DNA from: Heptranchias perlo
Taxonomy: Eukaryota
Assembly: GCF_035084215.1 (NCBI RefSeq)
Contig: NC_090340.1
Coordinates: 15,252,001 to 15,316,000 of the forward strand
Length of the DNA stretch: 64,000 nucleotides
Direction: 5' to 3'
Shown here: piece after piece, positions 5,000 through 39,904 of the stretch
Layout of the letters: every line of letters starts with the position of its first letter
Position numbering within the stretch: the first letter of the stretch is position 1
The notes under the pieces: model-generated
Told to the model about the DNA's origin: nothing
The model's database searches: none
Seen by the model: only the letters and a program-made list of their open reading frames with translations
Made by a program: the position numbers and the translations under genes

Positions 5000-5084
5000 C
5001 CGCTTCTAATCTTTCGATCAGTCACTTCTTGGACATGCAATTACATTCAGAGGGACACACATCACCTTCTACTGCATATTCCAC
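5000..5084 (+). pseudogene. 5' fragment of a decayed V exon (psiV-a)
   Basis: Reads ...FRGTHITFYCIF. 22 nt (5061-5082) are identical to 9150-9171. The upstream intron end is homologous to that of the intact V, and the acceptor reads AA. Confidence 0.7.
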
Positions 5085-5215
5085 TAAACATAAATTCAGT
5101 GAAATTTAGTCAATCTTCGCGATTCTTCTTCACCTCTTTCATTTGTAGGTAGAAGTGTGTTCCGAAGTGTCTGGTTCCGCGTCCAATACAATTAACCACG
5201 TATATTTTCCAACAT

Positions 5216-5449
5216 CTGCGGCGCATACTTCGATCAGAGTGGCTCAAATTCCCGAACATGTGATGGCATTAAGAGGGACAGACATCGTGTTCGACTGTGT
5301 AATCTCCCCCTCTCAGGACAACTCTCGAAAAGACGTGCGTTGGTGGAAACAGGTTGCGAATGGACGTGCAAAGTGGAACGGATAACAGAAAATGATTTGG
5401 TCTGAAAATTAAAGAAGGCGGTTTCTTTCAGTTGCTGAACGCGACTTTA
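5216..5449 (+). pseudogene. V exon pseudogene (psiV-b), truncated by CR1
   Basis: AAHTSIRVAQIPEHVMALRGTDIVFDC...VRWWKQ...FGLKIKEGGFFQLLNAT aligns with the intact V. Acceptor AG>AT, a frameshift, CGA>TGA, and a CR1 tail at about 5453. Confidence 0.85.
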
Positions 5450-5452
5450 AGA

Positions 5453-7940
5453 GAAGAGCATAAGAAATTGGAGCAGGAGTAGGCTATAAGGTCCCTCGAG
5501 CCTGCTCCGCCATTCAATAAGATCATGGCTGATATTCCACCTCAATTCGACTTTCCCACCCTATCCCCATATCTCTTGATTCCCTTGGTGTACAAATATC
5601 CATCGATCTCGGCCTTAAATATACTCAACGACATAGCATCCACAGCCGTCTGGGATAGAGAATTCCAGAGATTCACAAACTTCTGAGTGAAGAAATTTCT
5701 CCTCATTTCGGTACTAAATGGACGACCCCTTATCTTGACACTATGATATCTAGTTCCAGACTCTCCAGCCAGGGGAGACAGCCTCTCAGCATCCATCCTG
5801 TCAAGCCCTCTAAGAATTTTAGACGTTTCAATGAGATCACCTCTCATTCTTCTCAACTCCGGAGAAGAAAGGCACATTCGACTCAATCTCTCCTCTTGGA
5901 CAACCCTTTTGTCCTAGGAATCAATCTAATGATCCTTTTTTGCACGGCCTCTAAGCAAGGTATATCCTGACGTAAGGAAACCAAAACTGTACACAATACT
6001 CCAAATGTGGAAACACTGGAGCCCGATATAATTGCAAGGCTTCCTTACTCTTATACACTTACGCACTTCTAATAAAGGTTAACATAATGTTTGTCTTCCT
6101 AATTGCTTGCTGAACCTGTACGTTAACTTTCTGTGATTCATGTTTCAGGACAGACAAATTCCTTTACTACCAACATTTCTTGGTCTGTTTTTCAATTCTT
6201 CCTACCAAAGTGGATAATTTCACATTTATCGACGTTATTCTCCATCCGCCACCTTCTCGCCCATCCACTTAACCTGTTTACATCCATTGCAGTCTATTTA
6301 AATCCTCCTCGCAGTTTACTTTCCCACCTCGTTTTGTATCATCAGCAAACTTGCATACATTACACTCGGTCCCCTCATCTAAGTCATTGAAATATATTGT
6401 AAACAACTGAGGCCCAAGCACTGATCGTTGTGGCACCCCACTAGGTACAACCTGCCAACCTGAAAATTATCCGTTTATTCCTACTCTCTGATTTCTTTCC
6501 GTTAGCCAATCCTCAATCCATGCTATTCTGTTGCTCCCAATCTCATGATCCCTAATCTTGTGGTAACAACCTGTTGAGTGGCACCTTATCAAATTCCTTT
6601 TGGAAATCCAAATTACTACATCCACTGATTCCCCCTTATCTACCCTGCTCGTCACGTTCGCAAAAAAATTCTAATAAATTTGTCAAACACGATTTATTTT
6701 TCATAAAACCGTGTTGACTCTGCCTAATCATATTATCATTTTCTAAGCGCCCTGTGACTAGGTCTTTAATAATAGGTTCCAGTATTTTCCCCACCACTGA
6801 TATCAGGCTAACTGGCCTATAGCTCCCTGATTTCTCTCTCTCTCCTTTCATGAAAAGCGGGGTTACATTTGCCACCTTCCAATCCACGGGGACCATTCCG
6901 CCATAGGGAAATCTGGAAGATGAAAACCAATGTATCGACTATCTCAGTAGTCACCTGTTTTAAAACCCTATGACGTAGGCCATCAGGTGCAGGGGATTTG
7001 TTGGCTTTTCGTCCCAATAATTTATCCAATACCTTTTCTTTACTAATCTTAATTATTTTGTGTTCATTACTCTCATTAGACCCTTGGTTTTCCACTATTT
7101 CCGGTATGTTTTTACTGTCTTCCATTGTGAAGACAGATGCAAAATATTTGTTTAATGTCTCTGCCATTTCCTTGTGCCCCATCACAATTTCTCCTGTCTC
7201 TGCCTCTAAGGGATCCAAGTTTTGTTAACCTCTTCCTTTTTACATACTTGTAGAATCTCTTACAATTTCTTTTTATATTTCTTGCTAGTTTACTCTTATA
7301 TTCAATTTTCTCCCTCTTTATCAATTCCTTGGTCACCCTTTACTGATTTCTAAAACCCTCCCAATCCTCAGGCTTACTCGTATTTCTGGCAACATTGTGA
7401 GCCTCTTCTTTTAATCTAATACTATCCTTAAATTTTCTAGTTAGCCACCGTTGTATCACTTTTCCCATGGGATTTTTATTTCTTAAGGGAATAAGAACAT
7501 AAGAACATAAGAAATAGGAGCAGGAGTAGGCCAAACGGCCCCTCGAGCCTGCTCCACCATTCAATAAGATCATGGCTGATCTGATCCTAACCTCAAATTT
7601 AAATTCATGTCCAATTTCCTGCCCGCTCCCCGTAACCCCTAATGTATACTCATTAAGAATTATGAATTATTTATTTAAATGTTCGCCATTGCTTGTCTAC
7701 CATCATATCTTTTAATGTAATGTCCCAATCTAACTCAGTCAACTTACCTCTCATACCTACGTAAAAGGCTTTGTTTTAATTTAAGACCCTAGTTTCGGAC
7801 TTGACTACATCATTCTCGAACTCTATATAAAGTTCTATCATATTATGACCACTCTCCCCCCGAGGATCCTTAACCTTGTGATTACTAATTAAGCTTGTCT
7901 TATTACACAATGCTAGATCTAAAATAGCCTGTGCCCTTAT
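5453..7940 (-). mobile_element. CR1 LINE, degenerate, with a nested short CR1 3' piece at about 7490-7643
   Basis: RT fragments (DWKVANVTPLF, SQHGFMK, CLTNLLEFF) and CATAAGAA-type tails. Confidence 0.9.
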
Positions 7941-7944
7941 TCTG

Positions 7945-8370
7945 CAATCATCCCCGTGTTCGCGGACCTACATTGTCTCCAAGTCCCGGAAGCCCTCGAT
8001 TTTAAATTTCACATTCGTGTTTTCAAATACCTCCATGCCCTCGACCCTCCCTATCTCTGTAACCTCCTCCAGCCTTTCGAGATCTCTGCTCTCCTTCAAT
8101 TCTTGACTCTTGCGCAGACCCGATTTTAATCGCTCCACCATTGGCTGTCGTGCCTTCAGCGGCCGAGACCCTAAGCTCGGTAATTCCCTCCGTAAACCTT
8201 TCCGCCTTTCTACCTCTCCTCCTTAAGACGCTCTTTAAAACACAACTCTTTCTCCAAGCTTTCAGTCACCTGTCCTGATATCTCCTTATGTGGCTCGGTG
8301 TCAAATTTTGTTTGATGACGCTCCTGTGATGCGACATGGGTCGTTTTGCTACATTAAAGGCGCTATTTTA
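7945..8370 (+). mobile_element. L2-clade LINE 3' end
   Basis: Decayed L2 C-terminal pattern (I.PV..DLH.L...DFK...PPYL...RAFS...NSL...LKT.LF). Confidence 0.65.
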
Positions 8371-8856
8371 ATTCCAAGTCTTTTTCTCACCAACGTTTTT
8401 CAGAAAATATTGCCGGTTATTATCCAAAAGCTGATGATCAACGATCTATGTTGGGCCCCACTTTGTATTCATTTAGCATTAGGTCACGTTAAAGTAATGG
8501 CCCGTGTACACATCAACTTCTTGCGAAATTCATCTCGGGATGATCGCACTCGCACCTCCATTCCGGCATCTCAACTTTTCAAGAAAAAACACTGACTGCA
8601 TGAGTCAGTAAATTCTGCACTTGGAAAGCAAATATTTTCCCTTACTTTTTGCTGTACGTGACACATGTGATTCAACAGTCGAATAAGTGCAGAAATTAGC
8701 ATATCGTACTGAACAAACGAAGCATCTGTTGTAAAGCCGCAGTTACAGGATGTCAAACGACGTTGCGACGCATCTCAAGAAAAACAACCGCAAACTATTC
8801 TTAACAGTGGCAAACTCGTAATTAGTGCAGTGCGTCAGTTTAATCTGTTGCTCAGA

Positions 8857-8911
8857 ATGTCGGCGAGTATGGTGTTTCTGTGCTTGACGCTCCGGAGGAT
8901 TATTTACACAG
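8857..8911 (+). CDS. IgSF VJ-C1 receptor, exon 1 (leader MSASMVFLCLTLRRIIYT)
   Basis: ATG at 8857, 55 nt, phase-1 donor ACAG|gtacc, in frame with the V exon. Confidence 0.75.
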
Positions 8912-9081
8912 GTACCTCTTTATTCACAAGAAAAGCTACTTTAATTTATAAAATGATTCCGAAGTAGTTTCCACATAAACGAAGTGAACGTAATTCCTCT
9001 CTCTAGATTCATGTTTTCTCTCTTCCATCTCCATGTCGTCTCCAATAAAACTAATCCGTACTTGACTATATTTTCTGACAG

Positions 9082-9402
9082 CTGCGGACCACAGTTCGTT
9101 CAGAGTGACACAAACGCCCAAACAGGCGACTGTATCCATAGGGGGAAATATCACCTTCTACTGCATATTCCCCATCTCTCAAACCCATTCTTGGGTAAGA
9201 GTGTATTGGTCGAAACAGGGTGAGGATGAATACCTGCACAGAAGCGGCGATAAGAGAAAACGATTTGGTCTGGAAGGTAAAGCAAGCGGTTTCTTTCAGT
9301 TACGGAACGCGACTTTCCAAGACTCTGGAGTCTATCACTGCGCAGTGATCCGACAGGGAACAGTTGGAGAAGATGGAAACGGATCACATCTGATTGTGCA
9401 TG
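9082..9402 (+). CDS. IgSF VJ-C1 receptor, exon 2: V-set domain with germline-joined J-like strand
   Basis: ag acceptor and gtaagt donor, 321 nt, phase 1-1. B-strand Cys (FYC), C-strand Trp (VYW), DSGVYHC, J-like GNGSHLIV. Confidence 0.92.
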
Positions 9403-10460
9403 GTAAGTGTGAAACACCGGAGAGCGGGAGACTGTCGTAAACATATCAAACATAACATACGGGATTTTTTTGTGATTTGCTTTATTGTACAGTTTCTGAC
9501 AGTAAAACATTTCTATGAACACTTTTTGCGAGAAAGTTAAGTTCGTGTTCTCTGTATAGAACTGCCAATTAGATAGCAAAATATAACCCTCCACACGCAG
9601 GGTACTGTAAAATGTGTCAATGTTAAGCAATTGGACTGTAACTCCAAATACATTTATACACCAGACGTTTGATAGCGGAAGTTCGGAAAAAAATTCAAGC
9701 TGAGTGAAAATGGTTTATATTAATCCGCTTTCCCCACTATATACACGGTTGTTAGTGCATTTTGTCTGCTCTGTCTGCCCCCACCGCTGTCTCTGGGGTT
9801 TAACATTCTTGAAATTAATTCTCACATGAAGATTGGCTCGTTAGCGTCACGGATTTGAAAGCCAGCTAACTGTTGATCAACGGATTCACTCAACAAAGTG
9901 GAGCTCGGAATTCACAACGTTGTCACCTCACCAACCTCCAATAAATAAAACAATACTCAGGAACTGTATTGCTGAAATCTCCTGAGGTTCAACCGAATAT
10001 AGTTTATTTCACAAATCCTCATGCTTCGGCAATGAGATCTGTCCAATACCGAGTAATGCCCTGGTTTTATCATCGGCAATGTGTAGATTACTCGATTACT
10101 CGTCACTGTCTAACTGAGTAAAAGAAAATGGAGGACTGGGCGTGCCAACTTTCCCCCAGGGTTTATTTCTTTAATTCTTTGGACTATGAAACGTGACATT
10201 GATTAGCGATTGTTGCGAAGTGTCTGCGGTGTAACTCAAAGTTTTGGACTCGGTGGTGCATATAAAATTGAACAGATGCCGGTGACGATGAATGATATGG
10301 TTGAGGTCTGTGTTGACAATGTGCCAAATATAAAAAGGACAGGAGGCTGTGCTTTGGAATGGTGCTGTTATAATAAAATGGACGGAAGGAAATAAGAATC
10401 ATATTTAATTTCTCCCCATGGTGCCCAGTAACTCGATTTTGTTCATTCTCTGTTCCGCAG

Positions 10461-10772
10461 CTCCCCCAACTCCACTGAAGATTGCCTCGAGGACAGCTGA
10501 GGGGAATTCATCTGCGTCTCTGACTCTTGTGTGTGAAACGGCAAAGTTTTTTCCGGAGAATTTCACCCTCGCTTGGTATAAAAACGGCGTTGTAATTGCA
10601 ACAGGAATACATACGATTAAACGGCAGAACACTGAGGGGCTGTATGAAGTTTCCAGCTCTTTGGAAGAGACGCAGCCGGTCCCGAGCGGCGCAAATTATA
10701 CCTGTTTGGTATCTCACATCTCCCTCCACACTCCAGCGATTGTCACCTATACCGTTACAAAATCTAACCAAC
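10461..10772 (+). CDS. IgSF VJ-C1 receptor, exon 3: C1-set domain
   Basis: ccgcag acceptor and gtacga donor, 312 nt, phase 1-1. LTLVCETAKFFPENFTLAWYKNG...GLYEVSSSL...YTCLVSHISL carries C1-set hallmarks. Confidence 0.92.
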
Positions 10773-11045
10773 GTACGAGGCCAACAGTCCAAAAAGGATA
10801 GTTAAAATCGCAAACAGATATATCGTAGAATGTGTACATATTGATAATCAAGAAGGTAGTTAATGGAAACACATGGGGTTAATATCAACGAAAACATGAC
10901 ATTCTGATTTTATTGTATAATATAATTGAACCCGATGTGTTGTAATACGGAGTTATATCGTCCGGAGCCAAATATTCCCAGTCAAACCTTATTTGCCTTC
11001 AACTTCCTCTATTTGAGGGATAACAAATATAAACAAATATAAAAA

Positions 11046-12230
11046 GGTGAGGTGAGAGTGACTGCCCTTGACATCAAGGCAGCATTTGACCGAGTATGGC
11101 ACCAGGGAGCCCCAGTATAATTGAAGTCAATGGGAATCAGGGGGAAAACTCTCCAGTGGCTGGAGTCATACCTAGCACAAAGGAAGATGGTAGTGGTTGT
11201 TGGAGGCCAATCATGTCAGCCCCAGGACATTGCTGCAGGAGTTCCTCAGGGCAGTGTCCTAGGCCCAACCATCTTCAGCTGCTTTATTAATGATCTTCCC
11301 TCCATCATAAGGTCAGATATGGGGATGTTTGCTGATGATTGGACAGTGTTCAGTTCCATTCGCAACCCCTCAAATAATGAAGCAGTCCATGCCCGCATGC
11401 AGCAAGACCTGGACAACTTCCAGGCTTGGACTGATACGTGGCAAGTAACATTAGTGCCAGACAAGTGCCAGGCAATAACCATCACGAACAACAGAGAGTC
11501 TAACCATCTCCCCTTGACATTCAATGGCATTACCATCGCCGAATCCCCCACCATCAACATCCTGGGGGTCACCATTGACCAGAAACCTAACTGGACCAGC
11601 CATATAAATACTGTGGTTACGACAGCAGGTCAGAGGCTGGGTATTCTGCAGCGAGTGACTCACCTCCTGACTCCCCAAAGCCTTTCCACCATCTACAAGG
11701 CACAAGTCAGGAGTGTGATGGAATACTCTCCACTTGCTTGGATGAGTGCAGCTCCAACAACACTCATGAAGCTCGATACCATCCAAGATAAAGCAGCCTG
11801 CTTGATTGGCACCCCATCCACCACCCTAAACATTCACTCCCTTCACCACCGGCGCACAGTGGCTGCAGTGTGTACCATCCACAGGATGCACTGCAGCAAC
11901 TCGCTAAGGCTTCTTCGACAGCACCTCCCAAACTCGCGATATCTACCACCAAGAAGGACAAGAGCAGCAGGCACATGGGAACAACACCACCTGCAAGTTC
12001 CCCTCCAAGTCACACACCATCCCGGCTTGGAAATATATCGCCGTTCCTTCATCGTCGCTGGATCAAAATCCTGGAACTCCCTAACAGCATTGTGGGAGAA
12101 CCGTCACCACATGGACTGCAGCGTTTCAAGACGGCGGCTCACCACCACCTTCTCAAGGGAAATTAGGGATGGGCAATAAACGCCGGCCTCGCCAGCGACG
12201 CCCACATCCCATGAACGAATAAAACAAAAC
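11046..12230 (+). mobile_element. CR1/Jockey-group LINE, 5'-truncated, in the C1-TM intron
   Basis: 352-aa RT ORF with [10 protein letters not shown] and FADD, plus an A-rich tail. Confidence 0.92.
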
Positions 12231-13128
12231 AGGAGTTTATCTTTTGCATCCCATTATATTTCTTTCCTGCTTATTATTGATACTTTTTCGGGGTTTTTTT
12301 TCTATGTTAAACTGCCGGCTTTCTCTGCATCAGGACAATTACCAGGAGCTGCAGTGGACGTGTTTGCTCTTTGGCTTCTTCCAATGCATTTCTCAATCCT
12401 GAAATTCCCCCTCCCTCTTCCGCCTACGTCGAGTGCAGAGTTCTGAACTTAAACCGCTGTCCAACTTCCACCCCACATCTCTCCATGCCACAGTGGGTTC
12501 GATTGCGACCTGTCTCATAAATCTCATGTAAACTGTACCCGCAATTTGGTTAGAGTGCAGCCGGTTCAACATATCATTTTATTAACAAATCTTAGCTTTG
12601 CCAGATAATAATTAATAAACCGTCGCCCGTTGATCTCTTTTCCTATTCAATGACATTTTTACTTCAATAAACACTGTGCGGATAATTGAATGAGGGTTAT
12701 TAACCAATTGCTGCAATCCAGAATTTTGTGGGGGCTACGAGTAAACCCGTGTGAACAAATTCCCCCCGATTTCGTCAAACTATATGTTAATGAATAAGAA
12801 TGGTCAAGGACATAAACAAGTCATTCGGTCCAGGGAAATTTATCCCCCTTGTATTCTAATTCTCCTAAAACATTGTTTTGAGATCCCTAAACGGTAGTCA
12901 CCTTCGCAGATTATTCCAGAACGTCTCATCCATTCGATGAAGAAGTTACTTGAAATATTATATCGAAAAAATTAACATTTTTTTATTTACACTTCCTTAT
13001 TGTCGTTCTATACAGCGGAGTTACTGAAAACATCAATAGTTTAAGCAATAAACTATCTTGCGGCCTCTTTTTAGCAAACGCCCGCCCTAACGTACAACTC
13101 AATATATATGCTCCTATTATTCTTGCAG

Positions 13129-13242
13129 TTCGTGACGGTATGTCTCCTTACTACTCGGGTTTTAGAAATGCGATGGGCGGTGCGGCGTTTCTAGTGCTCC
13201 TGGTCATCATCTGGACGCACTGCCAATTGCAGGTGAATCAAG
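13129..13242 (+). CDS. IgSF VJ-C1 receptor, exon 4: transmembrane (LRDGMSPYYSGFRNAMGGAAFLVLLVIIWTHCQLQVNQ)
   Basis: ttgcag acceptor and gtaaga donor, 114 nt, phase 1-1, open in frame with C1, hydrophobic stretch. Confidence 0.82.
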
Positions 13243-13739
13243 GTAAGATCTACTGTAAGCGTTTGATTTTCATACAAAACTTCAGGGAGCGGTGGGGAGA
13301 GGTAGTGTGAGACTCGGAATAACACGAAGAAGGCAGTGTTATCTGATTTCGGGGAGCGTCCATTGTTCCAACAGTAACAGATTCTGCACTTTAAAAAGCA
13401 GAAATCCTCACAGAATCAGATTAAAAATGGATCCGATTACCTCTCTATTTGCAACAAAAATTTCCACTTTCCACTATGTACCCTGATACATAATCACTTT
13501 CCAAACCAGTGGGCTGTGGATCCCCAACTAGTTTGAATGAAGCGGTGTGAGGCTGCGGCCGATAATGGCCATAAGTCATTGCTGATCGCTACCTGGACTC
13601 CGATTCAAACATGGTCGGTACACTCTGAAATTGAAAATCATGTTCCGCTTCATACTGACACTGGAAAGGTCCTTAAAATCACTACTATGGAAACTTAGCA
13701 AATATTTCAATCATTCCTGATAATTACATTTCATTAATT

Positions 13740-13787
13740 CATGGATAAAAACTGGACCGAACGGTCATGAATGGCCGGTACGTTCAT
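13740..13787 (+). pseudogene. Dead copy of the cytoplasmic micro-exon
   Basis: Homologous to 37224-37267 (ggaccga...catgaa...g|gtacgttca) but the AG acceptor is lost and there is an internal deletion. Confidence 0.7.
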
Positions 13788-13970
13788 CCATTCATCGCAG
13801 CAAAGGGTTCAAATGTGCAGAAAGATTGATACCATGGAGATATTTTAATCAAAATGATGTCAGAACAGTTTGCCTATTTCCTAAAAGAAGTTGCTTTGTT
13901 CCGCTGAAAGTTCATTCAAATCGTGTTCAGAAAAAATATTTGACGCTGGCGGGGAGGAATTTTACCCTCC

Positions 13971-14074
13971 GGGGCGAAATTGGTTTTCGGAAAAGAAAGG
14001 CGAGTGCAGTGTCCAACGGGCGGCCGCTTCGCTATCGCCCGTTTCGCGCTACCGCCGAAGGCCAATTTCACCCT
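13971..14074. mobile_element. Short palindromic MITE-like insertion
   Basis: gggcgaaattggttttcgg ... ccgaaggccaatttcaccc are imperfect terminal inverted repeats; absent from the paralogous intron near 37.4-37.6 kb. Confidence 0.55.
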
Positions 14075-14452
14075 GTCTCCGGTGTGTTGCTATTTTAAAT
14101 TATTAATTAGCACAAAATGAAACTGTTAGTTTCGTTGAAAATGTATCTAAGCAATTTTATAGAGTCAATATTATTCATAATTGGGGAAATTCTTAATATT
14201 GTGGAACTACCGCTCATTTAATCATTTATGTGGTGTATAATGAACATTAACGGGTTTAAATATTAAGTTATAGCGAGCACAGTACTCATCGGTCCAAACA
14301 TTCCCACTTATGTAACAATATTAATTATGGTTTCTGCAGTTTATTTCTCGTCGACGTTGTTTTGTTCACTGTTTAACTAATAGTCTGTAAACTGGTGAAG
14401 GCAATGAACGAGCAAACATTACAAAACATACACTTGTCCCTGGCCCATGTAG

Positions 14453-14466
14453 GAAGCAAAGACTGA
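14453..14466 (+). CDS. Proximal terminal exon with a degenerate tail; direct splice from TM gives GSKD-stop (271-aa protein)
   Basis: tag acceptor retained. Paralog of 37922-38068 with indels destroying the ITIM/ITSM. AATAAA at 15031 is conserved with 38734. Confidence 0.5.
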
Positions 14467-17400
14467 GATCGTTGATACGCTGCTTTCCGATCGAACAGAA
14501 CTCATCAAACTCCAAGACGTAAATGAAGAGGAATGTGTACAATCAGGCGGGGGTGGGAAGAGGATCAGACAGACACAGATCACCAGCGTAGCATCAATAA
14601 TCATGGGATAACGAAAAATATAAGGTTGGTTGACTCTGGTCGTTTATTGTATCTAAAGTTGTTTGTGTGTTATTCTGTTGATTGTTTTCGGCAGCAGTCC
14701 ACAAACTGGCAAAACCACCAATTAAAAATATTTCCAAACACGGGTTACAAACCAAAAAAGGGACCCACGCGACTCTAAGCTCCCAAAAAATGGGGAAATC
14801 CCAAAATAACAAATAAAACACAGATTAACATGTTCCAGTATTATATCATTCAAAGAAGGTGTAATTGTTTGTTATTGCTTAAATGTTTGAGGAATTTTCA
14901 TTGATTTACTTGTCCTAAAAATGAATTTTCTTTGCACCTTTTTGACCAAGCTGTTATGTTTTACAGATGAGAAATTTCTGCAATTATATACTAATTGTTT
15001 TTGTACCTAGTTATTATCATGCTTAACTTCAATAAAAATAGATGTTCTACGATTTCTCACTTATCAGCCATTAGCGATCCTTTTTCTTCGCGAGTAAAAC
15101 TGCAAAACCTGAATTTTGATCGATGTGTTGCCTTGCTGTATTGTGACTTCCAGTCCAGGCGATTCTGCCGATGTGGAAGGCAGGACGCTGCAGTCTATGG
15201 ACTCGTCCATAAATCCACTGAACCCAGATTGCAGTTGATGGAACATGAGGTACCTTTCTCTAATCTCTGAATGAATATCCATTTCGCCCAGACAATTCCA
15301 AGTCGCTCCCAAAGGAAATGCCCCGATTATTCAAAAGGACAGAGATTCTAGAGAGTTCTGAGACAAGCAACAAGAATGAATCCGGGACCTGGCAGTTAAG
15401 TTGTGAGAAAAACCCCACGGAGCCGATTGCATTTTTATTGGAGGTAATAACAAATTAAAAAGGATTCAGGCCTTTAAAATGTTGAAAGACGTGGTTGATG
15501 TAGATAAGCTCGCTGTATGACTTTACACGCAACAACAGGTTCTGAGTTTACAATCCTCAAAGAAGAGAATAGAATTACAACCATTTTTTACTGTGGCTGT
15601 TTGTTCAGCTGGGGGATAACTAGTAGTTTGAATGGTTAAACAATCATCTATTTGGAAGTAGATCACTTGAATTACAGGGTGAGAACTATCTGGTTACTGG
15701 AAGAATAGCAGCCCAACAGTTCCAGCGACTAAGCCTTCAACTCAGAACTTAAAGATAATACAAGACGTAGTTGCATTTTATTTGGCCTAACCGTCTTGGT
15801 TTGATGACTCTGTGCATTAACAAGCCTTTTAGAGTCCAAGAATGTTACAGCAGAGAAGCAGATCATTGGGCTTCTAATGTCTGAACTTTTTTCTCTCCAC
15901 ATGAACCAGTTAATTTGTCCTATTTTGCTTTTAGATTCCCACGATCTTTAATGTCCCTCTTTTCAAGCAACTAATTCCATTCTAAAAGAAATCCTGCACT
16001 GGGTTTGTGGCAGAGAACTTTATATCTCATTCTAACCAGCCTCCGTGTAGAGAGTATTTTACCTCTCCCTTTATTTTTTGAGATTATTTTAAATTTCTGG
16101 TCAATCGCTACAGTTTACTGACCACTGGAAACAATATAACATTATTACCTTATCATAACGCGTCTTACTGTTGAAAACCTCTTAAACATCTCAGCTCAGG
16201 TCAAAGATGTCCAAGCTTCTCAAATATTAACAACCCCACGTTCCTGGGAATTAAATCTGCCCCTTTTCAATTGTTTTTATATCTTTCCATAGTTTTAGGA
16301 AAACTTTTCCACCAGCTGAACATTATCTCCTTCCTTTTGTATTTTATGCCACCAAATACTAAACCAGGACATTCCCTTTGCATTTTTATTTTATAATAAA
16401 TTTCTGCTGCCATCATTCGTTAAGGTGCCTCTGCTGCTCTCCAATTAAAATCGTATAATTTAAGATGCATTTCCCATTCTTACCTCCAGAAATGTACTAT
16501 TTCACATTTCTCTCCATTCGCTATGGATCATCTAACTGCCCTTCGAACTAACTATCGATGTCGCCGGCAGAATTTCATAATCTGCATGAGAATGTCATTC
16601 CCTCCTCCCCATTGTTTGTCATCTGCAAATTTTAATGTTGCTCCCTCAATTCCCCAGTCAAGATAATTAATCTTTATAATAAATAAAAGCAGCCCAGCAG
16701 AGACCCCGGGGAACACCTCTCGGCACATCTTTCCACTCCGAGAAATATTCTTTTACCCTTATACTTTGTTTTCTGTCCTCCAATCATCTCTCAATCCCCA
16801 TAGCCACTTTGTACTTACTTTCACGTGCTTTTGTCGTATATGGTATCTTACCAAATGCGTTTTGAAAATCCATACAAACTACATCTGCGGCATTCTCTTT
16901 CTCTATTCTCTTTGTTATTTCTTCAATTCATTCTTTAAATCAAGCGGATTTGCTTTTTTCTAAATTCGTGATTGCTGGACTTGATTAGTTCAGGTTTCTG
17001 CAAGAATTTCGCAATTTTATGGCGAATGTCGCAGGCCCTGCAAATTGCAAGTAAATGTGCAACTGTTTACGTATCATTATGTTGCAGGTTGCTTCACATT
17101 GTTTTTTCTCATTTATAACAATTCGTTGGATTCGAGGAACATTATTGTTGTAGATTATTTTGAAAATTATTTAACCGAAAGTGACACATTTATGTGCAGT
17201 GGTACAAAATTAACATTTGGACATTCTATCAATCCTGTGTTCTGAGAAAAAGTAAGATATCAACTGAGGTGTTGACTAGTCTGGATTTAGCTACACGAAA
17301 TGTTTTGCTAAATATCGACACTAGCGAATCGTTTTCTCGAGCTAAAATGAAGCGCGTGTTATTTATTCGCCCCATCAGTGTAAACATCTTGAGAAGAATG

Positions 17401-19011
17401 TTACACATTCATATTGCTCCTATTACAGTGTTTTGCACCTTAAGACTGGTGGTTGGAGGTGATAAATGAGAAGATTGTACAGATAATTTCGAATGAGGTA
17501 TCTAGCAATCCTGCTCCAACCACATCAGAGGCAAGAAATCCGTATTCGGGATATCACAGGCGAGGCATATCCATTCGGAATTTCTGTTCCTTGACCGCCG
17601 GGAATCAGCAGTTCAGGTTCATAACAAGGGGTGACTAGAAGACTGTATAGTCTGTGGAGGGTTATTTCGCTTGACAGCATTGAAGGATTATAAGACAAAG
17701 CTGTCATGGATATATGTCATGAATATCTGTATTAGCAAGAATCAGGACCGGTGGAATTGATACACGTTTTGAGAAAGTAAATATTAGCGTGGGATTATAA
17801 AAATAAATGATTGGCCAGTGACTATTTTTAGCATAAGGGAACTCAATATTAATTATTCCCCATTTACATTCAGTTTCATCACACCATCACAGCTTGCAGT
17901 TAATGAACAGACCAGATCATTTAAATGTTTTTTTATGAATTATAATGATATGTCATAATGGATATATCCAGTATAATTGTGAATACATAATAGGGACGTT
18001 GAAGGGAGATTGCGGTATGTAATGCAGTAAAAACCGATACTCATTTTATTTCCATCTTTTCATCTGGAAAGAACATAACAGAAAATAGATAGTTACCTCG
18101 TAATGTTACAAATGCACTTCATTCATCTGATTTCTGGTTTGTTTCGTGTTTTCCATAACTCTTTTCAACCTTGATGGTGAGCTGAACCATGATCCTTGGA
18201 ACTTCGTTTGTTGTGTGTGACAACAACCGTTCACCGATATACTCAAGATTTCGACTGAGTTTACCCAGCACTGACAGAAACATGAGAGTTGGTACATTCA
18301 AGGATGTAACGCAGTCCAAAGTCCACAACATCATTTGAGCTACTTGATGCTAAAGTTGAACCCTCATTGCCTTAGTGAATGATTCTGCAGTAATGATTAA
18401 ATTGTATGGTTTGAATTTATTTATGGAAATACAAATTTACAATAAAAGGCTGCACATTGAGGCAAAGCGTAGCATACACTATAGGGATCAGTTTGTGTGA
18501 ACAGGTCATACCAGGGAGACTCAAATATCCATGACAGTGGCCACACTTGATATTTAACAAACTGACGATTTTAATGACCAACGCAACTTAAAGCTCTGAC
18601 CATTTTCATAGGGGAATGCTAGCACATGTTATCGCTGTGTCACACTTGTATCTGGTTTGCTTAAATTCGGTTTTCATTTAAAAAAGCAACAAATTACAAC
18701 TGAAAATGTACAGAACACCCAAATCAAATATGAGGAAGGTGGATAGAAACAACACCGATGATGAATTCCAAAGAACATATTGAAGTAACAAAGCATGACT
18801 GGTGAGTACAATCTACAAACAAAATAAAGAGAAACAAATGAAATTGCTCCACTTTTTGAAAATCTTTTGCTTTTTGTTCCACCACTAAAATGAGGGATTA
18901 CTGCTGGCAAAATATCGCGGTTACAAGATTTAGAAGAAAATATTCAAACCTATTAACACAATTGTAAGGAATCTTACAACACCAGGTTATAGTCCAACAA
19001 ATTTATTTTAA

Positions 19012-19052
19012 AATCACAAGCTTTCGGAGATTATCTCCTTCGTCAGATGATT
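19012..19052 (-). ncRNA. Minimal type I hammerhead ribozyme (Penelope pLTR copy 1)
   Basis: AAUCAU-CUGACGA-A-GGAGA UAA UCUCC-GAAA-GCUU-GUGAUU gives stem I, core, stem II and a palindromic AGCU stem III. Confidence 0.8.
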
Positions 19053-19288
19053 GAATGAAAAGGTTCTCAAATCGCATATCTTATACGATGTTGGGACAGC
19101 ATCACACCAATCAAAAGGTGTCGTTGTTATTCAAACAGGCCAGTCACGGAGAACAGCACGTCCCAGTACACTCGATATACATTGTGTCTTTTACACAGGC
19201 AGGCAGAAAGAAACTTAAAATGGCAGAGAGAGAGAGAGAGAGAATTTTAAAAAACATATAAATTTTTTCCCCCTTTTTGCTGGTGGGG

Positions 19289-22000
19289 TTACGTGTAGCG
19301 TGACATGAACCCAAGATCCCGGTTGAGGCCGTCCTCATGGGTGCGGAACTTGGCTATCAACTTCTGCTCGACGATTTTGCGTTGTCGTGTGTCTCGAAGG
19401 CCGCCTTGGAGAACGCTTACCCGAAGATCGGTGGCTGAATGTCCTTGACTGCTAAAGTGTTCCCCGACTGGGAGGGAACCCTCCTGTTTGGCGATTGTTG
19501 CGCGGTGTCCGTTCATCCGTTGTCGCAGCGTCTGCATGGTCTCGCCAATGTACCATGCTCCGGGGCATCCTTTCCTGCAACGTATGAGGTAAACAACGTT
19601 GGCCGAGTCACAGGAGTATGAACCATGTACCTGGTGGGTGGTGTCCTCTCGTGTGATGGTGGTATCCGTGTCGATGATCTGGCATGTCTTGCAGAGGTTG
19701 CCGTGGCAGGGTTGTGTGGTGTCGTGGACGCTGTTCTCCTGAAAACTGGGTAACTTGCTGCGAACGATGGTCTGTTTGAGGTTGGGTGGCTGTTTAAAGG
19801 CGAGCAGTGGAGGCGTGGGGATGGCCTTAGCGAGGTGTTCGTCGTCATCGATGACATGTTGAAGGCTGCGGAGAACATGGTGTAGTTTCTCTGCTCCAGG
19901 GAAGTACTGGACGACGAAGGGTACTCTGTTGGTTGCGTCCCGTGTTTGTCTTCTGAGGAGGTCTATGCGATTCTTCGCTGTGGCCCGTCGGAACTGTCGA
20001 TCGACAAGTCGAGCGTCATATCCCGTTCTTACGAGGGCGTCTTTCAGCGTCTGTAGGTGTCCATCGCGTTCCTCCTCGTCTGAGCAGATCCTGTGTATTC
20101 GTAGGGCCTGTCCATAGGGGATGGCCTCTTTGACGTGGTTGGGGTGGAAGCTGGAAAAGTGGAGCATCGTGAGGTTGTCCGTGGGCTTGCGGTAGAGTGA
20201 GGTGCTGAGGTGCCCGTCTTTGATGGAGATTTGTGTGTCCAAGAAAGAAACCGATTCTGAGGAGTAGTCCATGGTGAGTTTGATGGTGGGATGGAACTTG
20301 TTGATGTTATCGTGTAGTCTCTACAGTGATTCTTCGCCGTGGGTCCATAGGAAGAAAATGTCGTCGATGTATCTGGTGTATAGTGTTGGTTGGAGGTCCT
20401 GTGCAGTGAAGAAGTCGTGCTCGAACTTGTGCATGAAAATGTTGGCGTATTGGGGTGCGAATTTGGTCCCCATGGCTGTTCCGTGTGTTTGGGTAAAGAA
20501 CTGGTTATTGAAGGTGAAGACATTGTGATCCAGGATGAAGCGGATGAGTTGTAGGATGGCGTCTGGAGATTGGCTGTTGTTGGTGTTGAGTACTGAGGCT
20601 GTTGCAGCGATGCCGTCATCGTGGGGGATACTGGTGTATAGTGCCGAGACGTCCATCGTGGTGAGAAGTGTTCCTGGTTCAACTGGTCCGTGGGTGCTGA
20701 GTTTTTGTAGGAAGTCTGTAGTGTCGCGACAGAAGCTGGGGGTTCCCTGTACAATGGGTTTCAGGATGCCCTCGACGTATCCAGAGAGGTTCTCACACAG
20801 GGTTCCATTGCCTGATACGATAGGACGTCCGGGTGTGTTGGCTTTGTGTATCTTTGGGAGGCAGTAGAAGTCTCCCACGCGGGGAGTACGTGGGATGAGA
20901 GTGCGTAGGATGCTTTGAAGGTCTGGATCGAAGGTCTTGATCAGTTTGTTGAGCTGGTGGGTGTGTTCTTTGGTCGGATCTGCGGGTAACCGTCTGTAGT
21001 GTTCCTGGTTGTCCAGTTGTCGGTATGCTTCTTTGCAATAGTCCGTTCTGTTCTGTATGACAATGGCTCCTCCTTTGTCCGCTGGTTTGATGACGATGTT
21101 TCGGTTGGTCTTGAGAGCGTTGATGGCGTTGCGTTGTGCTCGGGTGACATTCTGGACTGTCTTCTGAGTGCGCCTGATGAATCTGGCATTGACGCATTTC
21201 CTGACAGCTTGGGCATACAAGTCAAGCTGAGGGTAGCGACCCTCCGGAGGAGTCCAGTTTGACTCTTTCCTCTTCGGTTGCTGTACCGTGGATCCCTCTG
21301 TCTGCTGTTCTGGATCATTGATTGTCTCATTGGGTTCACTGTTGAAATCTTGGGGTTTGTGGTAAAATTCCCGGAGCCTCATTCTCCTGATGAATTCCTC
21401 TGTGTCCGCCGCGAGACCGATGCGGTCCATTTTGGTGGTGGGGCAGAAATTGAGCCCTCGGCTGAGAACCTCGATTTCGTCTGGTTGAAGGGTGTGGTCG
21501 GACAAATTGATGATAGAGTTCCCTGTGGTTGTAACCGTGGTACCGGGGGAGGCTTGGTCGTTGCTGGTGGTGATGCCGAGTTTCTCAAGCTTCCTGCTCT
21601 TGGTTTTCATGTAGGCAGTGTAGTTCCGTTGCCTCGTCTGTTTGGCGGTATATCGTAGCTGGTCTGCTGTGTCCTGAGTACAGGTTGAGAGTATGGACTC
21701 TATCTTGGTTTCGAGGTTGTGGCGTCTGCTGTAGAGTTGGTGTATGAGATGGTTGCAGAGTGTGCGGGAGGTACGGCGGCAGAGTCTCTCAGCGTAATCC
21801 GAGTTGTATGTGGACTTGAGTGGGTTCTTGATCTGTAGTCCTTTCGGGATCTTGTCTGCTTTCTTGCAGCTCTGTAAAAACTTGATGTCTGTGTCGATAT
21901 GCGCAATCTTCATGGAGATCCTTAACACTGTGAGCCGGCAGTTTGTGGTGTCGATAGTAGCCATGATATGGAGATGCCGGTGATGGACTGGGGTGGACAA
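19289..22000 (-). CDS. Penelope RT + GIY-YIG endonuclease with one in-frame TAG at 20321-20323
   Basis: IKPADKG, GRPIVS, DVSALYTSI, GTAMG, RYIDD, then VVYLIRC...YIGET...RMNGHR...EDGLN. The two ORFs share one frame. Confidence 0.92.
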
Positions 22001-22050
22001 ATGTAAGGAATCTTACAACACCAGGTTATAGTCCAACAAATTTATTTTAA

Positions 22051-22091
22051 AATCACAAGCTTTCGGAGATTATCTCCTTCGTCAGATGATT
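22051..22091 (-). ncRNA. Minimal type I hammerhead ribozyme (Penelope pLTR copy 2)
   Basis: Same sequence as 19012-19052, offset 3039 nt. Confidence 0.8.
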
Positions 22092-24089
22092 GAATGAAAA
22101 GGTTCTCAAATCGCATATCTTATACGATGTTGGGACAGCATCACACCAATCAAAAGGTGTCGTTGTTATTCAAACAGGCCAGTCACGGAGAACAGCACGT
22201 CCCAGTACACTCGATATACATTGTGTCTTTTACACAGGCAGGCAGAAAGAAACTTAAAATGGCAGAGAGAGAGAGAGAGAGAATTTTAAAAAACATATAA
22301 ATTTTTTCCCCCTTTTTGCTGGTGGGGTTACGTGTAGCGTGACATGAACCCAAGATCCCGGTTGAGGCCGTCCTCATGGGTGCGGAACTTGGCTATCAAC
22401 TTCTGCTCGACGATTTTGCGTTGTCGTGTGTCTCGAAGGCCGCCTTGGAGAACGCTTACCCGAAGATCGGTGGCTGAATGTCCTTGACTGCTAAAGTGTT
22501 CCCCGACTGGGAGGGAACCCTCCTGTTTGGCGATTGTTGCGCGGTGTCCGTTCATCCGTTGTCGCAGCGTCTGCATGGTCTCGCCAATGTACCATGCTCC
22601 GGGGCATCCTTTCCTGCAACGTATGAGGTAAACAACGTTGGCCGAGTCACAGGAGTATGAACCATGTACCTGGTGGGTACACAATAACATTTTCTGTGTT
22701 TTCAACAGATTCTGAGAGCATTTTCGGTTGGAAGCTTGCATCTCTCTGAGAAGCCCGAGTCTACAGTGTAAGGGCTTTCCAGAGATGTCAATCTGTCGGC
22801 TGACAAGGCAGGAGAGTACAATTCCGACAATGCACTGCTGTGACTGATTTTAACAGCCTGTGTAGAGAATTGCGAGCATGCACTTACAGCTTCTTCCTTT
22901 CTGAATCCAATGAACACGATCATTGTCAGAACATGCCATGACTTGTGATTCGCAAACACATCCTTTGTCTCTGTGCAGCAACGAAGGAGGCATTGCTGCG
23001 GAATGATGGAAAAAAAAGTTAAGAAGCATTGAATTTCCTCATCAAACACTTTAAAGAAAACAGCATTTTTTGCATGGAACATTAAAGCAATGTAAAACAG
23101 ATACTTTTGAAAACTTTCTAAAAGAGCTATATTCAACCGGTTAGTGATTTAGTTAACAAAATATATTACATGCCATTCCGTTCAATGGTCATGTGCACCT
23201 CTTTGACATCGTGTCATAGTAGGTACATCACAGAAGGAGGCCATTCGGCCCAACGTGACTGTGCCGACTCTTTGAGAGTGCGATCCAATTGGTCCCATTC
23301 CCTTGCTCTTTCCCGATTGCCCTACAAATATTTTCCCCTTCGAGTAATTACCAATTAATTTTTCAAAGTTACTATTGAATCCGCTTCCATCACTCTTTCA
23401 GGTTGTGCATTCCAGATCATTACAACTCGTTTCCTCGCCCATGGCTCTTTTGCTGATCATCTTAAATGGAAACTTAATTGCAGAGGTTACCTTCACCCTA
23501 ACAGTCTGCGTCCGAAATAGGTGTGACCAGTTCCTTCAGAGAAAGTGTCACAGAAACAAATTGCCCAATTTGGAACTCTCACTGAGAAACCATCGGATAG
23601 TTAGCATGGGGCTGAAAAAAATCATATTGGTACAATTGCCAGCGTTCTACTCAGGTTGGGGCTGAGATATACCCTTAGCACCATTCATGCCTTGATTCTG
23701 GATGGAGCTGACACCATAAAATGTCCCCTGTATAATCTGCAACGAAATTGCAAACCTATCCGTTGTAAACGGGTACGGAATTTTGTTATATATAGCACTT
23801 AGAGAACGACATAAGTCTATCAGGAAATAGTTTCATTCCCCAGCCCTCACACCCTTCGCCTCGATTAATGAGAATTCACCCCAAGAGATTTCAAAAAGGA
23901 GGAAAATGGAATTTGAAATTCAGTTGTACTAAAATCAGAAATATTCAAAATCAGATTACACTTCGGTTGTGCACTTTAGCTGTTCAGTAAAAGTAGACAC
24001 AGAAAAAATGTTGATTCAAATGAATCGCTTAGTGCCGTGCAGATATTTACAGTGGTGTCATATGTTAAAGAGCTCAACGCAAACTCCAA

Positions 24090-35941: not shown

Positions 35942-37104
35942 GGATGTGCGCTCTGCCCGAAACAGTATCCCCGCCGCACATATCGCTCTCCTGGACCTGA
36001 CTTGGAGAGGGCCAAGCAAGATAAGCGTGTGTCGGCCTGGCCGACCTGAACTAGAGCTACTGATTTCACATCGGTAGCTGCAATGTAAATGCACTCTAAC
36101 AATCAGTTCAATTAAAAACAATAAATCTTATCTTCACTTGTTATTTATGGCTTTAGATAAGGGTGAAGTTACGGTGCAGATAAACCTAAACTTTTTGAAT
36201 ATTTAGCTTTATCTGAAAGACCATTTGGTCCATCCTAGCTCAGCCATCTAAAAACCGACATTTCCCCTATTACAGAATTTAATTCCCCCTTAAATGATTT
36301 CAGAGTGATGCCTCCACTTCAGTACCTCATGTCCACTTCCATTTGAGATAGTCTTTGTGTAAAGAAAAGGTTTTCCTTATCTGTTATCGTGATGTAGGTT
36401 ACATCTGCAAGGCTGCATTTATTGTCCATTCGAATTGCCCTATACAAAGTGTCGGTGGGCCATTTCTTGCTGATGTTTTTTTTTGTGTACAATGATGAAG
36501 GAATGGCGAAGTATGTCCAAGTCAGAATGGCGTTCCCATATCGTTGCTGCTCTCATCCTGCTCATGGGAGAGGTCGAGGGCCTGGGAGGTGTTGTCCAAT
36601 AAGAACTTCTTTATATGAGTCCTAAATCAGCTCGCGTCCCATCAGCCGGATAATAGATTCGGTTTACACAGCGTTTAGCACACGGACGTCGATATCATGA
36701 CTTTTAGCCAGTCAACCTGAAATTTTATGACCATTATATTTCCGTATAACCTCAGGGTTAGTGAGAGCCTCTGGGTAATACACGGGAAGGAGAACTCGAT
36801 TAGGACTTATGGTTGAAGCCAATGTTATCTGTTTTCAAGGTTTGTTCCAACTGCACATTAAAACTCAGAAATCCTCACAGAATCGTATTAAAATTGGAGA
36901 TAATTATCTGGATATTGTAACAGAAAGTTATAATTTGCAGCAAGTGATAAATCAACTGTGCTCTGACACACAGTCACTTTCCAACCCATTACGTTGTGGA
37001 TGCGTAATGACTTGGAATGAAAACATGTGAGGCCCCGGCCCGGCAATGGTTTTACACCGTTGTTAATCGCTGCAGGGGCTGGGATTCAAACACTGTCAGC
37101 ATAA

Positions 37105-37542
37105 TCTGAAATTGAATGTTATGTTCGGCTTTGTACCGACTCTAGAAATTTCTTTGAAATCACTGAATGTAAACTGAATAACTGTGTCAATCTTTCAATA
37201 TCATTAAATTTCATTCGTTCCAGGTAAACAGGAACGTGTAATGGGACCGACCCGCCATGAAGAGCTGGTACGTTCATTCATTCATCCTCTGCAGAGGGTT
37301 CAAGTGCGAAGAAAGATTGCTATAATGGAGAGATATTATCACAATATTGCCAGAACAGTTTAAGTCTATTTACTAAAAGCATTTGCCCGGCCTTAGTGAA
37401 TCATTCAAATCGTAGTTAGAAAAGTATTTGGCAAAGTATTTAATGATATTGAAAAATTGACACAGTTATTCAGTTTCCATTCAGTGATTTCAAAGAAATT
37501 TCTAGAGTCGGTACAAAGCCGAACATAATGTTCAATTTCAGA
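37105..37542. repeat. 105-bp inverted repeat (37105-37209 / 37438-37542) enclosing the 44-nt exon
   Basis: Reverse-complement comparison shows 4 mismatches in 105 nt, with a 228-nt spacer. Confidence 0.95.
37224..37267 (+). CDS. Cytoplasmic micro-exon, 44 nt, phase 1 to 0 (GKQERVMGPTRHEEL)
   Basis: ttccag acceptor and gtacgt donor. It exactly bridges a phase-1 TM exon to the phase-0 ITIM exon. Confidence 0.75.
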
Positions 37543-37921
37543 ATTGGCGTTGCTGGCAAAAATGTTAGATAGCGGACAAGAAAACTGCCAGTTTCGTTTG
37601 AAATGTACCCAGTTAATAACTGTTTATGGAGTCATCCATTGTCTGTATTTGAAAAAAATATTTTATGTTCAAAGCTGCCGCTTATTTAAACATTTCTGTA
37701 ACAGTGTTGTAGAGTGAATCGTGACAGGTTTAAATATTAGTTATAGTGACCACAGCACTCATCAGCTTTAATATTCGTACTTATGCCAATATATTAATTA
37801 TGCTTTGTGCACCTGGTCTCGAGCCAAGCTCGTTTTGTTCAATGTTTCGTCAGCAGTACGTAAATTGGTGAAGGCAATGAACTAGCCACGTAACCAAATA
37901 TTTGCTTTCTGGCCCATGCAG

Positions 37922-38068
37922 GGAGCAGAGGCTGATATCGTGCATTATGCTGCATTAGATATCAGCAAAGACATGAAAACTCCAAGACGTAAAGATGAAG
38001 AGGAGAGGACCGTGTATGCTCAGGTAGGGTTGAATAACAGATCAGAGAAACATGGATCATTACTGTAA
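37922..38068 (+). CDS. Terminal cytoplasmic exon with ITIM (VHYAAL) and ITSM (TVYAQV)
   Basis: cag acceptor. GAEADIVHYAALDISKDMKTPRRKDEEERTVYAQVGLNNRSEKHGSLL*. AATAAA at 38734. Confidence 0.82.
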   Translation, partial: GAEADIVHYAALDISKDMKTPRRKDEEERTVYAQVGLNNRSEKHGSLL

Positions 38069-39904
38069 CACCAACATTCATGCGATAGTGGAATATTTAA
38101 GGTTGTGCTGACTTTGATCTTGTATTGTATCTAAAGCTATTTGTGTATTATTCTGATGACTGCTTTGAGCAGCAGTCCACAAAACTTGCAATACGTCCAA
38201 TCAACAATATTTCCAAACATAGGCTTTACAGAAATACAAGGGGCAGCCCGTGACAAGCTGACGTAGGCAGTTCTAGCAGTGACTGGCTCAGTGAAAATGG
38301 CGCAATGCAAAAATGACGAAAGAAGCACCGACTATGCCCAGCTACCAACACAAAAGCAAAGTCGAGTACCAGAGGCTGTTTACTCCGAAGCAAGAATCAA
38401 ATAGCGATAGAATTTTAGATGTAGAGGTCACTGTTTGGTGTCTACTGATCGCTTTCCGTTGCGGTATCAACTAAGCGCGTATGTATACCGTGTGAGACCG
38501 TACCTCCGAGAGGTAACGCATTCGAGTGTAATATTAGAGAATGCAGTCTCTGGTCTTTACTTGCTGTTCAATTGCTTCCTGAATTTTCATTTTGCTGCTT
38601 TTAAGAGAAAGCTAACTTTCCTGACATACTTCCATGTTAAATCTGTATTATCTAACAAAAGACAAACTTCTATTTCAATTACAATGATACGCTAATAGTC
38701 TTGCTGTGCCTAATTATCATCTTAGAAAAATTCAATAAAAACAGTTTGTATACGATAAATCAACGATTCGTGCGCCTTTTTTGGGAGTAAAACTGAAAAA
38801 CCTTTGTGTTAATTTATGTGTCGCGTTAACGCGTTCTGACTTGCTGTCCAGGTGACGCTCCTGATATGGAAAGCAGGAATTTCCAGAGTATGGAAACCTA
38901 CTGAACGTAGTTTCCAGTTGTTTTATGTCCTCCAAACATCTGTTTACCCACGTGGCCACGTAGAATCATATAATCTTACAGAACAGAAGGAGTCCATGCG
39001 TCTGTTGTGCCTGTGCCTGCTCTTTGAAAGAGCTATCCAATTAGTCTCAATCCCTGCACTTTCCCCAAAGCCCTGCAATGTTTTCCTTTTCAATTATATA
39101 TCCAATTCCGTTTTGAATGTTCCCATTGGACCTGCTTCAACCACTGTTGCCCTTACTTCCAAGATTCATTATCCTATGGTGTTACCTTGTCAATTTTTTT
39201 CAATATCCATGCAAAAACATCTGCTGCATTTCCTATATCTAGTCTCTCTGCTGTTTCTCCAAAGCATCCTAAACTGAAAGTCAAGCATGATCTGCGTTTT
39301 CGAAATCCGTGCTGACTTGCCTTGATGAGATCAGGTTTCTACAGGAAGACAGCAGTTTTATCCCGAATGACACAAGGCCTGGAAAATGCAAGGAAATATG
39401 CAACTGTTTACCTGCCGTCATGTTTCAGTTTACTTCACATTCGATGTTCTTATCTAATAACAATTCATTACTTCAAAATGGAGTCGAAGTGCTGCAGATT
39501 ATTTTGGTAATTAGTTAACCGAAAATGTATTACATCTATATACAGGAATCAAAAGGTCAATGTGGGGGCGTTCTATCAGTCCTGTATTCTGATAAAGTTT
39601 AAGCGATTAGCTGGGGATTTTACGGTTCTGGTGTTAGCTGCACCGATGTGTTGCTAAATATTGACACGGGCGAATCGCTTTTTCGAACGACGGAAATAAC
39701 ATGGTTCAGTCACTCAGCTCGAAGCACCAACACTTCTAATTCTAAATTTAACTCTGTTAATTGCAATATACTGAAAACGTATCTAGTGTCGAATAGCGGC
39801 AGTTATTGCTCATCGCATGGTTCAGTATAATTATAACAACACTTGATGTTCACATTCAATTAAGATTTTATTTCACATTTGATTTTTCATTGCAGCTTCC
39901 AGAA

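Follow-up and report, generated by a model that had tools for sequence, protein, structure and literature searches.

An inhibitory-type V-C1 ectodomain joined to an old arginine transmembrane module in Heptranchias perlo: a candidate activating paired receptor

Paired receptors are well known in mammals. For example, the available part of PMC4042635 describes Siglec-14 as near-identical in its ligand-binding domains, via partial gene conversion, to Siglec-5, the ITIM-bearing member (ITIM, immunoreceptor tyrosine-based inhibitory motif). CD89 binds FcR-gamma via an Arg near the top of its transmembrane (TM) segment, and NKp30 and NKp46 are assumed to act alike (available part of PMC13107469), while the LILR family also has a soluble member, LILRA3 (available part of PMC3533184). 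This study concerns a 64,000-nucleotide (nt) stretch of the sevengill shark Heptranchias perlo (contig C18, 15252001-15316000; hereafter the window) and the one complete Ig-superfamily gene inside it. The gene is best explained as an ITIM-type V-C1 ectodomain grafted onto an old module made up of an Arg-bearing TM exon and a dead tail; it is likely an activating paired receptor, its Arg being predicted to bind the Asp pair of a CD3-zeta/FcR-gamma-type adaptor (probability roughly 0.6). The observations behind this reading are a junction at 13075-13095, a module common to six paralogs and a catshark, the absence of ITIMs, and a V domain near-identical to that of loci L034 and L038.

The gene comprises a leader, a single-exon VJ, a C1, a TM and a terminal exon, and its predicted product has 271 residues (816 nt). 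The four exons upstream of the terminal exon are open and in phase 1, with AG/GT ends on the leader, V and C1 exons, and a J-like G-x-G stretch closes the V domain inside the same exon. The TM exon translates as GFRNAMGGAAFLVLLVIIW. The parts of the gene are as follows.

8857..8911, plus strand: leader exon, with ATG at 8857 and a phase-1 GT donor; matches the N-terminus of proteins P0001 and P0002.
9082..9402, plus strand: single-exon VJ-type V domain (Pfam V-set, 4.7e-11); protein 99% identical to ITIM-bearing L034/L038.
10461..10772, plus strand: C1-set exon (Pfam C1-set, 5.1e-12); donor AAC/GTACGA with a private G>C at -1.
13075..13095, no strand assigned: chimera junction, ITIM-type to the left and Arg-type to the right, 34-54 nt before the TM acceptor.
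13129..13242, plus strand: TM exon of the Arg module (AG/GT, phase 1); Arg codon at 13164-13166, with a private Tyr>Asn beside the Arg.
13742..13777, plus strand: micro-exon remnant of 33 nt against 44 nt; acceptor CAG changed to TGG (13742-13744), donor kept, opening with a stop when read in phase.
14453..15036, plus strand: terminal exon, encoding GSKD and a stop, followed by a 3' untranslated region made of the dead ITIM exon, its old intron and a remnant of the old final exon; polyadenylation (polyA) signal AATAAA at 15031-15036.

The two halves of the gene have different closest relatives. From 8001 to 13000, 200-nt tiles are 76-98% (mostly 85-98%) identical to the ITIM genes L031, L034 and L038, and this likeness falls to 66-78%, about 70%, after 13000; tiles from 13001 onwards are 81-95% like the Arg genes L032, L035 and L039, as against 66-84% before that point (tiles of a long interspersed nuclear element, LINE, aside). 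Informative columns up to 13075 are ITIM-type in 67 of 75 cases, six of the eight exceptions being an edge artefact, and those from 13090 are Arg-type in 75 of 77 (gap columns counted singly). As assembled, the gene is chimeric, with ITIM-type sequence as far as 13075 and Arg-type sequence from 13095. That the assembly wrongly joined two existing copies is improbable, since neither half matches any fetched copy exactly. The junction would have been made by unequal crossover or conversion.

The right-hand module is not private to this gene. The Arg is present in 6 of 16 aligned TM exons, and a 1-nt deletion in the tail occurs in the same six genes (6 of 19 aligned tail copies), namely, the window gene, L032, L035, L039, L041 and L043, of which L035 and L039 are near-identical twins; because both features co-occur in the same six genes, chance is not a satisfactory explanation. 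The GT after TVYAQ is lost in all six Arg genes and kept in all ten ITIM-type copies compared. The dead ITIM exons of the Arg paralogs are 77-90% identical to one another, and the last exon of copy B matches the six Arg genes at its two ends only, among the matches listed. In the five other Arg genes the micro-exon acceptor is kept and, as read from the alignment, leads in each to an early stop or an ITIM-free tail. Outside H. perlo, the catshark protein P0011 carries the same Arg-TM exon (GMSRYYSGFRYTVGGLAFL) with a stop after five more residues, and it groups with the six Arg genes with support of 99/95 in a TM tree that is rough (37 columns, bootstrap not settled). H. perlo and the catshark belong to different shark superorders, the split of which lies over 200 Myr back. 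The Arg-TM/dead-tail module is thus old, being common to six paralogs and a catshark.

What the tail has lost becomes clear from the ancestral arrangement (P0001, locus L031), in which the TM exon is followed by a 44-nt micro-exon, an exon with VHYAAL and TVYAQ, and a final exon with LTYATL and TDYAEL. One candidate micro-exon, 20 nt long and directly 5' of the ITIM exon, was dropped once P0001 had shown the 44-nt one. The original prediction had correctly read several of the lesions from the sequence: the micro-exon acceptor is gone, a 1-nt deletion lies between 14472 and 14473, directly ahead of TAC, both Tyr motifs of the 14453 exon have disappeared, and the acceptor before 14453 and the polyA signal persist, so that splicing from TM to 14453 yields GSKD and a stop at 14464-14466. 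It had taken 14453 for the last exon, which ancestrally is the penultimate one, ITIM paralogs splicing on to the LTYATL/TDYAEL exon (P0001). The 14453 exon also has a 7-nt deletion, and at its lost donor (14547-14548) there is now a GC in poor context; the old final exon has lost its acceptor and, compared with copy B, about 180 nt of its coding part. Other splice routes do not restore a motif, as an internal phase-0 donor gives a 52-residue tail with zero Tyr, and intron read-through a 31-residue tail with a single Tyr outside the ITIM consensus. No family ITIM is therefore found on any splice route of the window gene. In this tail, the losses of the micro-exon acceptor and of the old final-exon acceptor and the 7-nt deletion are private to the window copy; neither the first nor the last of these affects the loss of ITIMs.

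A second tail of the family lies further along the window:

36850..38760, plus strand: orphan ITIM-type 3' fragment with a micro-exon, a VHYAAL/TVYAQV exon and a frameshifted final exon; no V, C1 or TM upstream.

The original prediction had used this 36.9-38.8 kb region as its comparator, and it is indeed an ITIM-type 3' end, but an orphan fragment rather than a gene. It is 91-96% like the pseudogenes L036 and L040, in which V is deleted and C1 and TM are absent.

The ectodomain has close inhibitory relatives. Compared with ITIM-bearing L034/L038, the V protein is 99% identical, differing at one residue, the C1 is 93% identical, and the genes are sisters in the tree (100/99). In a 49-row ectodomain tree, Arg genes stand beside ITIM genes in four H. 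perlo clades with support of 99-100, the Arg and ITIM labels having been assigned by the author from alignments and protein models. Gene L047 is L045-like until about 75 nt before the TM exon and then continues in a second Arg module (IVRLLMAFLV), which is common to L055 and L058; L041 and L043 have a shortened intron joined to the first Arg module about 40 nt before the acceptor; and L055 resembles L053 in the V and C1 exons only. The inhibitory/Arg pairs of the four clades draw on two distinct Arg-TM modules.

On the Arg-module side, each of the three junctions located (13075-13095 in the window, L047:3843 and L041:2791) precedes the TM acceptor by 35-90 nt, and their positions look as if the smallest unit moved were the branch point plus the TM exon. 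In the other C18 cluster, 20 of about 60 V places were examined; 16 had a TM match, and 3 of these 16 have an Arg followed by 16 uncharged residues, a reading of the TM alone, with the Arg column judged by eye. The second Arg-TM module, which ends in IVDH, is found in both clusters with very different ectodomains (L047:3927, L055:6542, L058:6598, L079:4522, L087:4880); in L049 and L057 the Arg is replaced by Gln. This TM column shows additional Gly>Arg changes in P0021, P0023, P0014, P0016 and L073 (houndshark, catshark, stingray and the first cluster); repeated origins of the Arg are likely, since each of these proteins is close to a relative without it.

The original prediction had noted that an Arg precedes the hydrophobic core. 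The Arg is there, but it probably does more than precede the helix, as it aligns with an intramembrane column that holds Gly, Val or Ile in the ITIM-bearing relatives. After this column, 16-17 uncharged residues follow in 24 of 29 aligned proteins. A zeta/gamma-type adaptor TM exon is present in the genome at C11, with an Asp followed by 15 uncharged residues; by alignment, the depth of the Arg, 16-17 residues above the cytoplasmic boundary, matches that of the adaptor Asp (15). Across database proteins, the residue at the Arg column and the type of tail appear associated. In a first protein set, a family ITIM tail was counted by the author in 0 of 6 with Arg at the column and in 16 of 26 without (p=0.018). 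Pooled with a second set (131 further representatives, of which the 42 with a TM match were counted) and with one twin dropped, the counts are 1 of 10 and 39 of 63 (p=0.004, uncorrected for kinship and incomplete gene models). DAP12 was rejected as a partner on the identity of the residue and its high TM position. A short zeta/gamma-TM-like match followed by a stop at L072 (C1:111.76 Mb) may be a relic second adaptor exon or chance.

The original prediction had suggested a dN/dS comparison (ratio of replacement to synonymous rates) of V and C1 as a check. Between the window gene and L034 there are 5 synonymous changes in 72 sites and 1 replacement in 246 (Fisher p=0.003) in V, and 9 synonymous and 6 replacement changes in C1, while V dN/dS between ITIM paralogs is 0.55-1.47. 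Eight of the nine changes private to the window ectodomain are synonymous (p=7e-5). Among five Arg genes, TM exon dN/dS is below 1 in 10 of 10 pairs (0.05-0.97; 35 codons). Gene conversion can distort such counts; taken as they stand, they indicate that the window V is under purifying selection.

It is proposed that leader, V, C1, TM and the 14453 exon are spliced into the 271-residue protein, a transcript for which no nonsense-mediated decay is expected because the stop sits in the last exon. The Arg would then lie in the outer third of the helix and recruit a zeta/gamma-type adaptor, and the receptor may see the same ligand as its inhibitory twin and counter a pathogen that exploits the twin.

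Several observations weigh against this proposal. At the protein level the ectodomain is intact, as the original prediction had stated, but the altered C1 donor had been overlooked: as assembled, it is the sole one with a non-G at -1 among 25 genes (24 of 24 others have G), and its U1 pairing is the weakest (-2.5 kcal/mol versus -5.3 to -11.5 in 21 others; three rows with a wrongly picked GT were left out, and duplex energy is a crude proxy). In the TM, the five remaining Arg genes and the catshark all have a Tyr behind the Arg, which is Asn in the window copy only, and the window TM has a dN/dS of 0.97 relative to L032. The cytoplasmic Lys-Arg anchor of the ITIM paralogs is Thr-His in the Arg clade, which could let the helix slide until the Arg came to lie at the interface. 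Taken by itself, the second protein set is not significant (ITIM tail in 1 of 5 with Arg and 23 of 37 without, p=0.15); P0054 has both the Arg and an ITIM-like LAYASL, and the tail of P0035, which is not of the family type, contains a formal IRYTYL. Used as a query, the catshark TM region matched nothing but itself among 53 candidates, and no other shark protein was found. Some of the purifying selection measured may have acted before the junction arose. L034 and L038 have GC instead of GT at the V-exon donor (near 1313) and a Tyr>Cys in C1, and P0007, the database model of one of these twins, is without V, so the inhibitory partner may itself be impaired.

The C1 donor gives rise to the first alternative, for which two further features are needed.

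10773..10801, plus strand: read-through of the C1 donor within the open reading frame (ORF) 10409-10798, with a stop at 10799-10801 after 9 codons; would give a 238-residue secreted V-C1.
11031..12226, plus strand: sense-strand LINE 3' fragment (reverse transcriptase ORF) in the C1-TM intron, absent from L031/L034, with AATAAA at 12175 and 12218.

With the private G>C and the LINE polyA signals combined, the product could be a secreted V-C1, or there could be none, which also counts against the proposal. The window copy might now make mainly a secreted decoy like the soluble LILRA3, the C1 donor being read through and the transcript ending at an intronic polyA signal; besides the weak donor, the open read-through and the two LINE signals, this would account for an ectodomain under purifying selection beside a TM with a private Tyr>Asn. 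We regard it as unlikely, as the GT, +3 A and +5 G of the donor remain, the U1 energy is an approximate measure, ITIM paralogs too have 2-3 AATAAA in this intron, and there is no damage to the TM frame, to either TM splice site, to the 14453 acceptor or to the polyA signal. The activating paired receptor of the original prediction is backed by the predicted TM position of the Arg, the tail loss, the pairing with ITIM genes and the adaptor gene in the genome, but a secreted product or none at all could result as well.

It is quite unlikely that a formerly activating gene has recently become a pseudogene through splice damage and is too young for stops or frameshifts. The private lesions (C1 donor, micro-exon acceptor, old final-exon acceptor, 7-nt deletion, LINE) and many broken neighbours (L036/L040, L046, L048, L056, L057) are in keeping with it; four open exons and the 8 of 9 synonymous private ectodomain changes are not, and most of the private lesions sit in already dead sequence. 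Improbable, too, is a membrane-bound decoy without signalling, in which the Arg lies at the outer interface, no adaptor is bound and there is only competition for ligand with the inhibitory twin. The strongly hydrophobic core begins four residues past the Arg, a polar Asn stands beside it, the Lys-Arg anchor is missing, and SIRP-gamma is a precedent for a tail-less, adaptor-free family member. Yet at least three unrelated TM lineages have the Arg at one and the same column, where none of the rows compared shows Lys, its depth fits the adaptor Asp, and CD89 likewise has polar residues above its Arg (available part of PMC13107469). The switch caught in progress that the original prediction had seen, i.e., an inhibitory gene with its own tail decaying and a TM Arg recently gained, is highly improbable despite the micro-exon acceptor loss and 7-nt deletion private to the window copy, because the Arg, the 1-nt deletion and the donor loss are common to six paralogs, the Arg exon also occurs in a catshark, and TM plus tail are only about 70% like the genes sharing its ectodomain, a ready-made block having been joined to that ectodomain at 13075-13095.

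No RNA record was listed for 13100-15050. Public contigs from three same-sample sets, the RNA nature of which is a guess, did not cover the TM exon, whether at 85% or at 80% likeness, and showed no TM joint, a blank that is no evidence either way. One sample's contigs, of equally guessed nature, match the ITIM gene L045 at 26 of 26 V and 12 of 12 C1 listed sites.

The gene belongs to a large family. A genome search with the window V gave 95 matches. Of these, 93 lie on C18, grouped into clusters (2.7-6.0 and 14.5-15.6 Mb), where the window gene is found together with ITIM-bearing members. Relatives also occur in other sharks, rays and Callorhinchus, and the database proteins carry automatic labels such as SIRP-alpha-like or tapasin-related. 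Within the window, 4770-5455 holds a broken, LINE-interrupted leader plus V copy of the same family, resembling pseudo-V copies in L067 and L068. The near-identical pairs L034/L038, L035/L039 and L036/L040 (C18 14.68-14.76 and 14.98-15.06 Mb) are spaced 299.9 kb apart, which points to a segmental duplication of recent date or else to a haplotype that entered the assembly twice. Terminal-exon-like pieces of the family lie on other contigs (C1:162303185, C15:44302685, C1:55819349). On the minus strand, 18958-22849 is a retroelement, which we take to be Penelope-like, with long reverse transcriptase and GIY-YIG-like ORFs, a single frameshift (near 20322) and an exact terminal repeat of 300 nt; it is apparently young.

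More broadly, and tentatively, cartilaginous fish may have a large paired-receptor system with an antigen-receptor-like VJ-C1 ectodomain. A small number of ancient Arg-TM/dead-tail cassettes would have been grafted repeatedly, just upstream of the TM exon, onto any inhibitory ectodomain in need of an activating twin, and would signal via the zeta/gamma contact of the T-cell receptor. If so, its members would be prime candidates for the missing inhibitory and activating receptors of shark natural killer and myeloid cells, with named candidate pairs having near-identical V domains; one Arg module would date from before the split of two shark superorders, and new activating members would arise by cassette grafting, not gradual decay. 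The origins of antigen receptors are touched on as well by a non-rearranging VJ-C1 receptor with a zeta-type contact. The literature search turned up no description of a paired V-C1 family in sharks; shark NCR3/B7H6 papers and subscription papers on VJ-C1 genes lay outside it, and the family may have been described under another name. Its novelty is provisional.

As for known families, the window gene is like the SIRP family in combining V and C1 domains with ITIM and charged-TM members, and database auto-names and Atlas top matches point to SIRP-alpha (SIRP PDB profile match 1.2e-15). Unlike SIRP (V-C1-C1), it has one C1 exon before the TM, not two. Activating SIRP members have a central TM Lys for DAP12, compared with the high Arg here. 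NSFL1C, which has a SEP domain, is a SIRP neighbour; SEP-domain matches were found on C22 and C3 only and none on C18, a weak test with one marker. NKp30 consists of one VJ domain with no C1 and is not known to have an ITIM twin. The NCR3/NKp30 layout, a single VJ directly on the TM, differs from that of the window gene, in which a C1 exon is present, and no NKp30 chain was among the 50 PDB matches of the window V, which are weak and of generic V type. NCR3 is linked to the MHC; the 43 MHC class I matches in the H. perlo genome are all on small contigs, none on C18.

The best PDB match of the window gene is UrIg2 (1.8e-18), and the gene shares with UrIg/UrIg2, PRARP and other non-rearranging VJ-C1 genes a single-exon VJ followed by C1; unlike it, UrIg2 has nine C1 domains and an antibody-like dimer (PMC12227049, PMC10751288, main texts). 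The word ITIM is absent from these two main texts, and no large paired cluster is described there. By domain count, the window gene is not a SIRP, NCR3 or UrIg member. In its Arg, predicted to lie in the top half of the TM, its short tail and its clustering with ITIM relatives, it appears analogous to LILRA/LILRB, CD89, NKp46 and NKp30, and like KIR2DS2 it has kept an ITIM relic (available parts of PMC3533184 and PMC13107469); LILR, CD89 and NKp46 differ in having C2-type domains. Closest in logic are SIGLEC14/SIGLEC5 and SIGLEC16/11, which likewise combine a near-identical ectodomain with the opposite membrane/tail module (available part of PMC4042635). Siglec-14 uses DAP12, in contrast to the high Arg of the window gene, and SIGLEC14/5 are built of V plus C2, whereas here VJ is combined with C1, and four ectodomain clades show the swap, between them using two Arg modules.

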